From assembly GCF_003334405.1 (NCBI RefSeq), contig NZ_QOWM01000001.1: 64,000 nucleotides of DNA, one strand, 5' to 3'. The position numbers were made by a program, and so were the translations under genes. Shown here piece by piece: positions 37,307 through 56,099 of the stretch. The stretch is from Escherichia coli. Its GTDB lineage: Bacteria > Pseudomonadota > Gammaproteobacteria > Enterobacterales > Enterobacteriaceae. How positions within the stretch are numbered: the stretch's first letter is position 1; every line of letters begins with the position of its first letter. The notes beneath the pieces were generated by a model. That model worked only from the letters and a program-made list of their open reading frames with translations. It ran no database searches and was not told the DNA's origin.

Positions 37307-38743
37307 ATGGCGCAGTCGAAACTCTATCCAGTTGTGATGGCAGGTGGCTCCGGTAGCCGCTTATGGCCGCTTTCCCGCGTACTTTACCCCAAGCAGTTTT
37401 TATGCCTGAAAGGCGATCTCACCATGCTGCAAACCACCATCTGCCGCCTGAACGGCGTGGAGTGCGAAAGCCCGGTGGTGATTTGCAATGAGCAGCACCG
37501 CTTTATTGTCGCGGAACAGCTGCGTCAACTGAACAAACTCACCGAGAACATTATTCTCGAACCTGCAGGGCGTAACACTGCACCTGCCATTGCGCTGGCG
37601 GCGCTGGCGGCAAAACGTCATAGCCCGGAGATCGACCCGTTAATGCTGGTATTGGCGGCGGATCATGTGATTGCCGATGAAGACGCGTTCCGTGCCGCCG
37701 TGCGTAATGCCATGCCGTATGCCGAAGCGGGCAAGCTGGTGACCTTCGGCATTGTGCCGGATCTACCTGAAACCGGATATGGCTATATTCGTCGCGGTGA
37801 AGTATCTGCGGGTGAGCAGGATACGGTGGCCTTTGAAATGGCGCAGTTTGTCGAAAAACCGAATCTGGAAACCGCCCAGGCCTATGTGGCAAGCGGCGAA
37901 TATTACTGGAACAGCGGCATGTTCCTGTTCCGCGCCGGACGCTATCTCGAAGAACTGAAAAAATATCGCCCGGATATTCTCGACGCCTGTGAACAAGCGA
38001 TGAGCGCCGTCGATCCGGATCTCGATTTTATTCGCGTGGATGAAGAAGCGTTTCTGGCCTGCCCGGAAGAGTCGGTGGATTACGCGGTCATGGAACGTAC
38101 GGCAGATGCCGTTGTGGTGCCGATGGATGCGGGCTGGAGCGATGTCGGTTCCTGGTCTTCATTATGGGAGATCAGCGCCCACACCGCCGAGGGCAACGTT
38201 TGCCACGGCGATGTGATTAATCACAAAACTGAAAACAGCTATGTGTATGCCGAATCTGGCCTGGTCACCACCGTCGGGGTGAAAGATCTGGTGGTGGTGC
38301 AGACCAAAGATGCGGTGCTGATTGCAGACCGTAACGCGGTACAGGATGTGAAAAAAGTGGTCGAGCAGATCAAAGCCGAAGGTCGCCATGAGCATCGGGT
38401 GCATCGCGAAGTGTATCGCCCGTGGGGCAAATATGACTCTATTGACGCGGGCGACCGCTATCAGGTGAAACGCATCACCGTGAAACCGGGCGAGGGCTTG
38501 TCGGTACAGATGCACCATCACCGCGCGGAACACTGGGTGGTTGTCGCAGGAACGGCAAAAGTCACTATTGACGGTGATATCAAACTGCTTGGTGAAAACG
38601 AGTCCATTTATATTCCGCTGGGGGCGACGCACTGCCTGGAAAACCCGGGGAAAATTCCGCTCGATTTAATTGAAGTGCGCTCCGGGTCTTACCTCGAAGA
38701 GGATGATGTGGTGCGCTTCGCGGATCGCTACGGACGGGTATAG
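37307..38743 (+). CDS. cpsB: Mannose-1-phosphate guanylyltransferase (colanic acid copy)
   Basis: 478-aa ORF; N-terminal nucleotidyltransferase motif [16 protein letters not shown]-terminal cupin. Confidence 0.95.
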
Positions 38744-38844
38744 CAGTTGAATAATCAACCGGAATAAATCTCCGGCAAATAACGACAAAAACAAAATTGG
38801 CCGTTTCGGTCAGGGCCAACTATTGCCTGAAAAAGGGTAACGAC

Positions 38845-40215
38845 ATGAAAAAATTAACCTGCTTTAAAGCCTACGATATTCGCGGGAAATTAGGCGAAGA
38901 ACTGAATGAAGATATTGCCTGGCGTATTGGTCGCGCCTATGGCGAATTTCTTAAACCGAAAACCATTGTTTTAGGCGGTGATGTCCGCCTCACCAGCGAA
39001 ACCTTAAAACTGGCGCTGGCAAAAGGTTTACAGGATGCGGGCGTCGATGTGCTGGATATTGGCATGTCCGGCACCGAAGAGATCTATTTCGCCACGTTCC
39101 ATCTCAGCGTGGATGGCGGCATTGAAGTTACCGCCAGCCATAACCCGATGGATTACAACGGCATGAAGCTGGTGCGCGAAGGGGCTCGCCCGATCAGCGG
39201 CGATACCGGACTGCGCGACGTCCAGCGTCTGGCAGAAGCCAATGACTTCCCTCCTGTCGATGAAACCAAACGCGGTCGCTATCAGCAAATCAATCTGCGT
39301 GACGCTTACGTTGATCACCTGTTCGGTTATATCAACGTCAAAAACCTCACGCCGCTCAAGCTGGTGATCAACTCCGGGAACGGCGCGGCGGGGCCGGTGG
39401 TGGACGCCATTGAAGCTCGCTTTAAAGCCCTCGGCGCACCCGTAGAATTGATCAAAGTGCACAACACGCCCGACGGGAATTTCCCCAACGGTATTCCTAA
39501 CCCGCTACTGCCGGAATGTCGCGACGACACCCGCAATGCGGTCATCAAACACGGCGCAGATATGGGCATTGCCTTTGATGGCGATTTTGACCGCTGTTTC
39601 CTGTTTGACGAAAAAGGGCAGTTTATTGAGGGCTATTACATTGTCGGCCTGCTGGCAGAAGCGTTCCTCGAAAAAAATCCCGGCGCGAAGATCATCCACG
39701 ATCCACGTCTCTCCTGGAACACCGTTGATGTGGTGACGGCCGCGGGCGGCACGCCGGTGATGTCGAAAACCGGACACGCCTTTATTAAAGAACGTATGCG
39801 CAAGGAAGACGCCATCTACGGTGGCGAAATGAGCGCTCACCATTACTTCCGCGATTTCGCTTACTGTGACAGCGGCATGATCCCGTGGCTGCTGGTGGCC
39901 GAACTGGTGTGCCTGAAAGGAAAAACGCTGGGCGAACTGGTGCGCGACCGGATGGCAGCGTTTCCGGCAAGCGGTGAGATCAACAGCAAACTGGCGCAAC
40001 CCGTTGAGGCGATTAACCGCGTCGAACAGCATTTTAGCCGTGAGGCGCTGGCGGTGGATCGTACCGATGGCATCAGTATGACCTTTGCCGACTGGCGTTT
40101 TAACCTGCGCTCCTCCAACACCGAACCGGTGGTGCGGTTGAATGTGGAATCGCGCGGTGATGTGCCGCTGATGGAAGCGCGAACGCGAACTCTGCTGACG
40201 TTGCTGAACGAGTAA
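38845..40215 (+). CDS. cpsG: Phosphomannomutase (colanic acid copy)
   Basis: ORF track starts upstream; trimmed to ATG 38845 ([14 protein letters not shown]), 456 aa; phosphoserine loop TASHNP. Confidence 0.95.
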
Positions 40216-40224
40216 TGTCATTAC

Positions 40225-53200: not shown

Positions 53201-53238
53201 TTATTTCCGAATAATTGATTTTTATAAGTGAAAAATAT

Positions 53239-54678
53239 ATGAAAGAGAAAAATAAAATTTATCCGGTAATAGTGGCCGGAGGAACAGGTAGCAGACTTTG
53301 GCCTCTATCAAGAGAGTTATATCCTAAACAGTTTTTATGTTTGCAAGGAAAACTTACAATGTTGCAAACTACACTCTGTAGATTGAATGATCTTCCTTGT
53401 GAGGAGCCTATTGTAATATGCAATGAGCAACATCGTTTTATAGTAGCTGAACAGTTACAACAAATTAATAAACTTACAAAAAATATAATTCTTGAACCTG
53501 AAGGACGTAATACTGCACCAGCAATAACATTGGCTGCATTAGCTGCACTAATGAATAATCCTGGTGAGGATCCGATGGTACTTGTTCTTGCAGCCGACCA
53601 TATTATCGAAGATGAAAAAAAGTTCCAAGAAACAGTACGAGAAGCTTTATTTTTTGCCAAGAAAGATAAGTTAGTTACATTTGGTATTGTTCCGGATCAT
53701 CCAGAGACAGGTTATGGATATATCAAACGAGGAAATGCTATAGATAATGAAAATAGTTTCAGGGCATACAGCGTTTCAGAATTTATTGAAAAGCCTAATT
53801 TAGTAACAGCTAAAAAATATGTATCCATGGACAGTTATTACTGGAACAGCGGAATGTTTCTATTTCGCGCAAATCGTTACATTGAAGAGTTAGAGAAATT
53901 TCGTCCAGACATCTTATCTGCCTGTCGACAAGCCATGTGTCATATAAATAATGATCTTGATTTTATTAGAATAGATGACGAGGCATTTCTTGCTTGCCCG
54001 GAAGAATCTATCGATTATGCTGTAATGGAACATACCGCAGATGCAATCGTAGTACCTCTTGATGCTGGCTGGAATGACGTGGGCTCATGGAGGGCGTTGT
54101 GGGAGATTAGCCAAAGAAATGATGAAGGTAATTCAGTATATGGCGATGTTATTAGCTACATGACTAATAATAGCTATTTATACGCAGAATCTGGGTTAGT
54201 GACAACTGTTGGGGTTAAAGATCTAATTGTTGTGCAGACAAAAGATGCAGTTCTAGTAGCTGATCGGCATGCAGTACAGGATGTAAAAAAGGTTGTAGAA
54301 CAGTTAAAACTAAAAGGACGGCAAGAACATCATATGCATCGTGAGGTTTATAGGCCTTGGGGTAAATATGACTCAATAGACTCAGGAAAACGATATCAAG
54401 TAAAGAGGATCACCGTAAAACCAGGAGAAGGACTATCGTTGCAAATGCATCATCACTGTTCAGAACATTGGATAGTCGTTGCAGGTACTGCGAAGATAAC
54501 ACTAAATAACAAGAGTTATTTAGTGAGTGAAAATGAATCTATTTATATCCCCCTTGGGGCAAAGCATAGTTTAGAAAATCCCGGGAAAATTCCCTTAGAA
54601 TTAATTGAGGTTCGTACAGGTTCCTATCTTAAGGAAGATGATGTTATTCGCTTAAAAGACCGTTATGGTAGAGTTTAA
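53239..54678 (+). CDS. manC: Mannose-1-phosphate guanylyltransferase (O-antigen copy)
   Basis: ORF track starts at 53215; ATG 53239 chosen by alignment with CpsB ([33 protein letters not shown]); paralog of cpsB at 37307, visibly more AT-rich. Confidence 0.9.
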
Positions 54679-54704
54679 TAAGAGATAAAAAATCGAGAAT
54701 TAAA

Positions 54705-56099
54705 ATGAAAACATTAACTTGCTTTAAAGCCTATGATATCCGTGGAAAATTAGGTGAAGAATTAAACGAAGATATTGCTTGGCGCATTGGTCGTGCATAT
54801 GGCGAATTTCTTAAACCGAAAACGATTGTTTTAGGCGGCGATGTACGTCTCACCAGCGAAACATTAAAACTGGCGTTGGCTGAAGGTTTGCAGGATGCGG
54901 GGGTTGATGTTCTTGATATCGGTATGTCTGGTACCGAAGAGATTTACTTTGCCACTTTCCATCTTGACGTTGATGGTGGGATTGAAATTACTGCCAGCCA
55001 TAATCCTATTGATTATAACGGTATGAAGCTGGTGCGTGAAGGTGCTCGCCCCATCAGTGGCGATACTGGACTACGTGATATTCAACGACTAGTGGAAGCT
55101 AACAACTTTTCACCGATTAACGAAAGCAGACGTGGCAGTTATAAGCCAATCAATCTACGTAATGCTTATGTTAATCACCTACTTAGCTATATCAACGTTA
55201 AAAATCTTACTCCTCTAAAGCTGGTGATTAACTCTGGTAATGGGGCCGCGGGCCCTGTGGTGGATGCTATTGAAGCCCACTTTAAAGCGCTCGGTGCACC
55301 TGTTGAGTTAATCAAATTGCACAATACACCGGATGGCACCTTCCCTAATGGTATTCCCAATCCTCTGCTGCCGGAGTGCCGTGATGACACCAGCAATGCA
55401 GTAATCAAACATGGCGCGGATATGGGAATTGCCTTTGATGGCGATTTTGACCGCTGTTTCCTGTTCGATGAAAAAGGACAGTTTATAGAGGGTTATTATA
55501 TTGTTGGACTGTTGGCTGAAGCATTCCTCGAGAAAAATCCAGGTGCGAAGATCATCCACGATCCTCGTCTCTATTGGAATACTGTTGATGTGGTTACCGC
55601 CGCAGGCGGCACGCCGATAATGTCGAAAACAGGACATGCATTTATTAAAGAACGCATGCGTAAGGAAGATGCCATCTACGGTGGCGAAATGAGTGCTCAT
55701 CACTATTTCCGTGATTTTGCTTACTGTGACAGCGGGATGATCCCGTGGTTGCTGGTGGCCGAGTTAGTGTGCTTGAAAGGGAAGATGTTGGGGGAGTTGG
55801 TACGTGATCGCATGGCTGCATTTCCGGCGAGTGGTGAGATCAATACTAAATTGGCGCAACCGGCAGAAGCGATTAACCGCGTGGAGCAGCATTTTAGCAG
55901 CGAGGCACTGGCAGTGGATCGCACTGATGGTATTAGCATGACTTTTGCTGATTGGCGCTTTAATTTGCGCACCTCTAATACTGAGCCGGTGGTGCGCCTG
56001 AATGTAGAATCGCGTGGTGATGTTAGAATGATGGAAAGAAACACGAAAATAGTATTTTCATTACTTAATGATAATACTATTATTTGCAATAAGGGATAA
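54705..56099 (+). CDS. manB: Phosphomannomutase (O-antigen copy), divergent C-terminus
   Basis: 464-aa ORF; long stretches near-identical to cpsG at DNA level (e.g. attgcctttgatggcgattttgaccgctgtttcctgtt); the last ~20 codons differ from CpsG. Confidence 0.9.

Follow-up and report, generated by a model that had tools for sequence, protein, structure and literature searches.

The manB gene of an O144-type Escherichia coli O-antigen cluster as a probable old, AT-shifted replacement by the colanic-acid gene cpsG

Replacement of the O-antigen phosphomannomutase gene manB by its colanic-acid counterpart, cpsG, is already known as a type of event, and the case described here matters little on its own. 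Jensen and Reeves are said to have described in 2001 O-antigen clusters of Salmonella enterica in which manB, but not manC, was replaced by the colanic-acid copy. The manB gene of Escherichia coli O157 has been described as replaced by the colanic-acid gene and as subject to conversion (Samuel et al. 2004, J Bacteriol 186:6536, as cited in Iguchi et al. 2011, PMC3158064). Recombination of the two genes has also been credited with deletion of the intervening DNA in E. coli O14 (Jensen and Reeves 2004, as cited in PMC7685785) and, repeatedly, with 23-kb deletions in the long-term evolution experiment (LTEE; PMC4173774; bioRxiv 10.64898/2026.06.14.732165). We report here on a 64,000-nucleotide stretch of the E. 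coli assembly GCF_003334405.1 (contig NZ_QOWM01000001.1), called the window below, whose plus strand carries two paralogous GDP-mannose gene pairs, cpsB/cpsG of the colanic-acid cluster and manC/manB of an O144-type O-antigen cluster. The O144 manB is probably an old, diverged member of the "colanic-acid-like manB" class, the product of an ancient cpsG-to-manB replacement that was followed by AT-ward decay.

An initial annotation of this locus had proposed segmental gene conversion between the two manB copies; the real signal behind that observation is discordant ancestry of manB and the adjacent manC. Informative sites were scored as carrying either the E. coli state or that of an outgroup consensus of 13 other enterobacterial sequences (E:O), with the Salmonella cpsG and Citrobacter freundii manB obtained by exact-protein match. 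The O144 manB (54705-56099, plus strand, 464 aa), which lies between galF and gnd directly downstream of manC, gives E:O counts of 34:10 for nucleotides and 10:3 for amino acids, as compared to 26:22 and 0:2 for manC (53239-54678, plus strand, 479 aa). Leaving aside a divergent internal patch, ManB shares 95.7-95.9% of its residues with E. coli CpsG and no more than 90% with CpsG or ManB of any other genus in the sets compared (CpsG-type proteins are 84-90% identical between genera). ManC, by contrast, is native-type and equidistant, 71-74% identical at the amino acid level to every enterobacterial CpsB, that of E. coli included. When protein neighbor-joining (NJ) trees for codons 171-440 were bootstrapped, 199 of 200 replicates (99.5%) joined O144 manB to the cpsG-type sequences of E. 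coli. Thus manB groups with the cpsG of its species while the adjacent manC does not group with cpsB, and since manB has this affinity whereas manC is equidistant, the two genes of the cluster have different histories.

The two pairs are paralogous and about 15 kb apart, as had been annotated, with 15.86 kb between the starts of cpsG and manB. They also differ in composition in the way first described, the colanic-acid pair having core-genome GC and the O-antigen pair being AT-rich. GC content and third-position GC content (GC3) are 0.56 and 0.62 for cpsB (37307-38743, plus strand, the manC paralogue of the colanic-acid cluster, recognized from its open reading frame and translation) and 0.55 and 0.64 for cpsG (38845-40215, plus strand, 456 aa), against 0.37 and 0.26 for manC and 0.45 and 0.42 for manB; GC3 in every other gene of the O144 cluster is 0.20-0.27. 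The colanic-acid phosphomannomutase gene is annotated as cpsG in matching E. coli genomes, and the cpsB-cpsG region of the window is 97-98% identical to annotated E. coli cpsB-cpsG; its mechanically called open reading frame begins at TTG 38797, and the true ATG, at 38845, lies 48 nt further in. ManC matches NCBIfam NF012004 with 888 bits. ManB matches NF011943, "phosphomannomutase CpsG", with 999.9 bits (cutoff 801) over residues 1-455, and TASHNP, DGDFDR and GEMSAHH in its translation mark it as a predicted phosphomannomutase of the CpsG/ManB type (alpha-D-phosphohexomutase superfamily).

The SIGNIFICANTLY heterogeneity of manB relative to cpsG takes the form of three discontinuities, each of them an excess of divergence. 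Similarity to cpsG begins at the manB start codon. The 26-nt manC-manB spacer (54679-54704, plus strand) shows no similarity to the unrelated 101-nt cpsB-cpsG spacer (38744-38844, plus strand), nor does manC resemble cpsB; the tract of cpsG-like sequence has its 5' limit at or near the start codon. Two segments read as cpsG-derived, codons 1-115 (54705-55049, plus strand; 85.5% nucleotide and 95.7% amino acid identity to cpsG, GC3 0.34) and codons 171-440 (55215-56024, plus strand; 83.3% and 95.9%, GC3 0.49). They enclose a hyper-divergent AT-rich patch at codons 116-170 (55050-55214, plus strand), with 71.5% nucleotide and 72.7% amino acid identity, GC3 0.29, a proportion of synonymous differences (pS) of 0.82 and a nonsynonymous divergence (dN) of 0.13, as compared to dN 0.02 and GC3 0.34-0.49 in its flanks. 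At the 3' end, BLAST alignments of manB to E. coli cpsG stop at query nucleotide 1319 (codon 440), and codons 441-464 (56025-56099, plus strand) form an AT-rich tail (GC 0.25, 50% nucleotide identity) that is not cpsG-derived, has no flanking homology and marks a 3' recombination boundary. The unevenness along manB first described is thus present as excess divergence (at 55077-55121 and in the tail from 56025), and absent as excess identity.

Within the patch, the core at 55077-55121 holds 19 differences where 7.8 are expected (scan statistic p<=0.0005), and codons 126-161 account for 15 of the 31 amino acid differences (rate-weighted binomial P=0.0013, post hoc). Its E:O count is 3:4. A three-segment chi-square on the informative sites gives p=0.019 and the max-chi-square test p=0.11, which is marginal, and the patch claim therefore rests on the scan statistic together with the post hoc amino acid test. 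A sensitive blastn search of 5,426 E. coli genomes for a patch donor returned a best match of 76.5%, which is cpsG itself, and none was found among 120 database proteins, where the best reached 76%. The patch may have been left over from the earlier manB, or it may be a surface segment under relaxed constraint. At its 5' edge (window 55056-55105), manB and a C. freundii O-antigen manB (locus L092, GC3 0.52) have in common several synonymous A/T states that are missing from cpsG orthologues; these could reflect parallel AT drift or a trace of common O-antigen-type manB ancestry.

The divergence is both AT-biased and concentrated on the manB side. Between manB and cpsG, pS is 0.66 and dN 0.033, with synonymous sites near saturation throughout (pS 0.56-0.82). 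Differences from cpsG to manB run 158 times from strong (G or C) to weak (A or T) and 45 times the other way, and 73 of the 82 changes polarised to the manB lineage are GC>AT. That lineage is accelerated about 8-fold relative to E. coli cpsG (82 changes vs 10; Tajima relative-rate test p=6e-14). Many of the ManB amino acid replacements run in the same GC>AT direction (D>N, V>I, A>V, P>S, G>S and R>H).

The initial annotation was correct that cpsG and manB share an identical 38-nt run, which we locate at 39568-39605 in cpsG and at 55428-55465 in manB (both plus strand), within the codon 171-440 segment; the string occurs exactly twice and encodes the metal-binding loop. It was also correct that manC has diverged further from cpsB (64.7% DNA identity; 60-nt windows 38-77%) than manB from cpsG (81.3% over the full gene and 82.4% over codons 1-440, where the proteins are 94% identical). 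The long near-identical blocks that it described, one of them around TASHNP, do not stand out from the average: the TASHNP block has 7 mismatches in 41 nt, no fewer than mean divergence predicts, the perfect matches next in length measure 26, 23 and 20 nt, and identity in 60-nt windows lies between 63 and 93%, with no bimodality and none of the windows near identity.

Nor did tests for mosaic tracts support the segments that had been proposed; for the near-identical blocks this is largely the result that the initial annotation had named as one that would refute it. To separate protein constraint from history we used synonymous codons, of which 395 were comparable and 46% differed; there, identity was not clustered by a max-chi-square segment test (p=0.34) or a runs test (p=0.30), and the longest identical run, 12 codons, had p=0.09 (p=0.14 when stratified). 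A Sawyer/GENECONV-type permutation over 632 alignment-variable sites gave p=0.43 for the longest concordant run and p=0.52 for the sum of squared fragment lengths, and third-position counts across 11 bins gave p=0.12. The scan statistic was set against a logistic null that took codon position, orthologue variability and cpsG base class into account, under which the most conserved block had p=0.49; when the null contained codon position alone, the top block was the 38-nt run, at p=0.13. The identity profile of the pair correlates with the conservation profile of cpsG orthologues (Spearman 0.34-0.57, p=0.02-0.04), which, taken with the non-significant tests, identifies the identical blocks as chance plus constraint at catalytic loops: the scattered identical runs are chance leftovers and constrained catalytic motifs of a 94%-conserved protein, not fresh conversion tracts. 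We also considered local cpsG codon composition as the cause of the profile. Per site it has an effect, third positions differing at 55% of G/C-ending but 26% of A/T-ending cpsG codons (p=2e-8); at the level of windows its correlations are weak and non-significant (rho -0.1 to -0.4), which makes it a minor contributor, with orthologue conservation explaining more.

We see no sign of exchange between manB and the resident cpsG after the cluster versions of E. coli and E. albertii parted. Identity of manB is 82.4% to the resident cpsG and 83.4% to the cpsG of another strain, and of 45 informative positions that are polymorphic in cpsG, manB agrees with the resident allele at 16 and with the other allele at 29. 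Reverse conversion, from manB into the resident cpsG, was considered and rejected, the resident cpsG being if anything less manB-like than another allele. The manB DNA of eight E. coli assemblies differs at 0-1 positions. E. albertii (loci L094, L096 and L097) carries the O144-type cluster at ∼96% identity (compared with window 16669-59800), while the flanking galF is at ∼88%, which suggests inter-species transfer of the cluster. In these genomes the locus lacks the whole colanic-acid cluster, corresponding to window 24278-46636, apart from the 3' end of wcaM, yet their manB is 97.5% identical to that of the window over codons 1-440 and, with the wca deletion at the canonical site, 82.8% identical to the window cpsG, as compared to 82.4% for the window manB. 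At the 33 differences between the E. albertii and window manB genes, which are scattered, the window copy agrees with cpsG 12 times and the E. albertii copy 17 times. Because the E. albertii manB is equally cpsG-like without a colanic-acid locus, the likeness to cpsG predates the split of the two cluster versions and has not been renewed in the genome that retains cpsG. Three signs of ongoing concerted evolution were therefore lacking in these comparisons: tracts shared between the paralogues (the tract tests being non-significant), greater closeness to the resident paralogue than to alleles of other strains, and a more paralogue-like manB where the locus compared with E. albertii still holds the paralogue. 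What survives of the proposed segmental conversion is that manB, and not manC, carries cpsG-specific states and has internal boundaries at codon 440 and around codons 116-170; conversion between the two copies of this genome as the source of the near-identical blocks is not supported.

Repeated short-tract conversion between the resident cpsG and manB, leaving a fine mosaic of converted near-identical blocks among unconverted native AT-rich ones, would account for the perfect runs of 38, 26, 23 and 20 nt and for the E. coli-specific synonymous states, absent from other genera, that manB holds within the longest of them, and conversion and recombination of manB and cpsG are documented in O157, O14 and the LTEE. 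We nonetheless consider it highly improbable, because none of five tests found a significant tract (p=0.09-0.52), no window comes close to the 0-4% divergence that recent tracts should have, and a pS of 0.6 would permit at most ∼20% of the gene to have been recently converted, yet dN is uniformly 0.02 outside the patch; in addition, manB is not nearer the resident allele, and the E. albertii copy is just as cpsG-like, although the locus there holds no cpsG partner. It is also quite unlikely that no exchange occurred at all, with manB the original partner of manC, cpsG-like because a phosphomannomutase is far more constrained than a guanylyltransferase. The high conservation of CpsG-type proteins between genera, the identity profile that follows orthologue conservation and the near-saturation of synonymous sites are all as this explanation would have them, but constraint leaves unexplained the Escherichia-specific derived states of manB (34:10, 10:3 and 199 of 200 bootstraps, vs 0:2 amino acid sites for manC), the abrupt drop of similarity and GC at codon 440, and a GC3 of 0.49 in codons 171-440 when all other cluster genes have 0.20-0.27. 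A third account accepts the same ancient capture and moves the AT shift elsewhere, to a long stay in a low-GC host followed by return, or to an unsampled AT-rich donor related to Escherichia. The GC3 of the other cluster genes, a classical sign of low-GC origin (PMC3715488), and the movement of the cluster between species speak for it; on the other side, recent polarised changes in Escherichia hosts lean towards GC>AT (20 vs 9, small numbers for which a GC-rich outgroup biases the polarising), and there is no low-GC relative of manB among the 120 database proteins or the 80 genome loci listed. We regard this account as rather unlikely, and to a shift in situ in Escherichia, from GC3 0.64 to 0.42, we would tentatively allow a modest chance, well below even.

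An ancient replacement by cpsG thus seems the most probable history of manB, but several observations weigh against it. At synonymous sites manB and E. coli cpsG are as far apart (pS 0.62-0.66) as genes of different genera (0.54-0.62), with dN 2-4 times lower, a combination that would fit only if the compositional shift inflated synonymous change. The patch is ambiguous. Many of the residues replaced there in manB alone are invariant in the other sequences, which fits relaxed constraint under AT pressure as well as a native remnant, and no donor was found. The protein sequence of codons 1-115 varies too little for the tree to resolve it (NJ bootstrap 10%), so that their Escherichia affinity rests on nucleotide sites with an E:O count of 11:0. 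The outgroup set is without other Escherichia species and cryptic clades, and because the eight E. coli manB copies were collected by identity of their protein, variants with amino acid changes would not be among them.

The replacement may have proceeded as follows. In an ancestor of the cluster, homologous recombination (gene conversion) would have swapped most of a low-GC manB for Escherichia-type cpsG sequence, the transfer running from cpsG to manB. The replaced tract would have extended from about the start codon to codon 440, leaving the 3' tail and manC native; the internal patch of ∼50 codons (∼116-170) is possibly native too. The captured sequence would then have gained strongly GC>AT-biased, mostly synonymous substitutions under purifying selection, taking GC3 from ∼0.64 to 0.42.

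With this gene, the O144-type cluster, which is common to E. coli and E. albertii, would be one more O-antigen cluster in which the colanic-acid gene has displaced manB, and would show an old, compositionally decayed stage of such a takeover. For annotation, the pipeline label "colanic acid biosynthesis phosphomannomutase CpsG" is misleading on an O-antigen manB. As direct repeats, the two copies could still recombine to give the known 16-kb deletion that removes the 5' half of the O-antigen cluster, though at 82% identity such events should be rare. The gene also touches the wider question of the AT-richness of O-antigen clusters: GC-rich when captured, and since then two-thirds of the way to the composition of its cluster, such a gene is a natural marker for distinguishing in-situ decay from donor origin. 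Should the shift have taken place in situ, a local force would have to drive and keep O-antigen clusters AT-rich, the candidates being selection for rare codons or low expression, regulation linked to H-NS or RfaH, and local mutational bias; inheritance of low GC from low-GC donors would be an incomplete explanation; and the manB genes of O157 and O173 (96%, GC3 0.62) and of O144 (82%, GC3 0.42) would represent an early and a late point on a single path of decay.

The O144-type cluster spans window 48613-59602 and has the gene order galF, wzy, three GT4 genes, manC, manB, a weak pyruvyltransferase-like gene, wzx, GT2 and gnd; its wzx and wzy are labelled "O144 family" in public records. The exact ManB protein occurs in >100 assembly blocks, always within the same O144-type cluster, which GenBank CP065611.1 also carries, while the cluster was found in none of the RefSeq complete E. 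coli genomes of the searched collection. According to a review, the O144 type strain is rough despite a complete-looking cluster. The open reading frame after manB (56068-57129) has a weak PS_pyruv_trans match, and its longest reading overlaps the manB 3' end by 32 nt. A 1-nt indel near the stop (window 56025-56110; L094 17440-17474) accompanies a length of 464 aa for manB in E. coli and 460 aa in E. albertii. In the colanic-acid region, the cpsB-cpsG spacer (38744-38844) contains small hairpins (e.g. TTGGCC...GGCCAA) with folding unremarkable relative to shuffles (z = -1.7); repetitive extragenic palindromic (REP) elements have been reported there for some strains in the literature. At window 31000-33000, which lies upstream of the region studied, GC falls to 0.42-0.45 within a colanic-acid cluster that otherwise has 0.53-0.57.

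Among the described systems, the colanic-acid-like manB of O157 is closest in arrangement: it too lies downstream of a native manC, its body is cpsG-derived while manC is not, its tail is not cpsG-like, and it is given the PGAP name "cpsG". In the O157 gene (L089, 20001-21371) and that of O173 (L090, 20001-21368), similarity to cpsG is lost after codon ∼440. Several cpsG-derived O-antigen ManB proteins (those of L089 and L090, and P0004, P0005, P0008 and P0023) are 96-98% identical to CpsG and then have their own unrelated C-terminal tail from residue ∼437-441; these separate tails point to a recurrent 3' junction zone for cpsG-to-manB replacement. Three of four class features are present in the O144 gene, namely its place after manC in the O-antigen cluster, a phylogeny at odds with that of manC and a recombination boundary within the gene, and the fourth, near-identity (>95%) to cpsG with core-genome GC as in O157, is not. 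The O157 and O173 genes are 95.5-96.8% identical to cpsG with GC3 0.62-0.63, which marks them as recent or ongoing replacements, whereas O144 manB is 82.4% identical (GC 0.45, GC3 0.42), has an internal hyper-divergent patch and shows no sign of exchange since the E. coli and E. albertii clusters split. From the Salmonella colanic-acid-like manB it differs in belonging to another species and other clusters.

As in O14 and the LTEE, the same direct repeats here flank wcaJ-wcaM, galF and the 5' half of the O-antigen cluster, and a 15.9-kb deletion is geometrically possible; neither a deletion nor a cpsG/manB chimera is present in the window. The copies in those systems are highly similar, whereas here identity is 82% and the longest perfect match 38 nt, so that recombination should be much rarer.

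For the compositional change, the nearest counterpart is amelioration, the change in G+C after lateral transfer that Lawrence and Ochman reportedly described in 1997, and that Aoyama, Haase and Reeves are said to have described in 1994 for the colanic-acid fucose-pathway genes. O144 manB resembles such cases in its directional third-position shift with a conserved protein, but differs in that its composition has moved further from the E. coli genome average and closer to that of the AT-rich O-antigen cluster around it.

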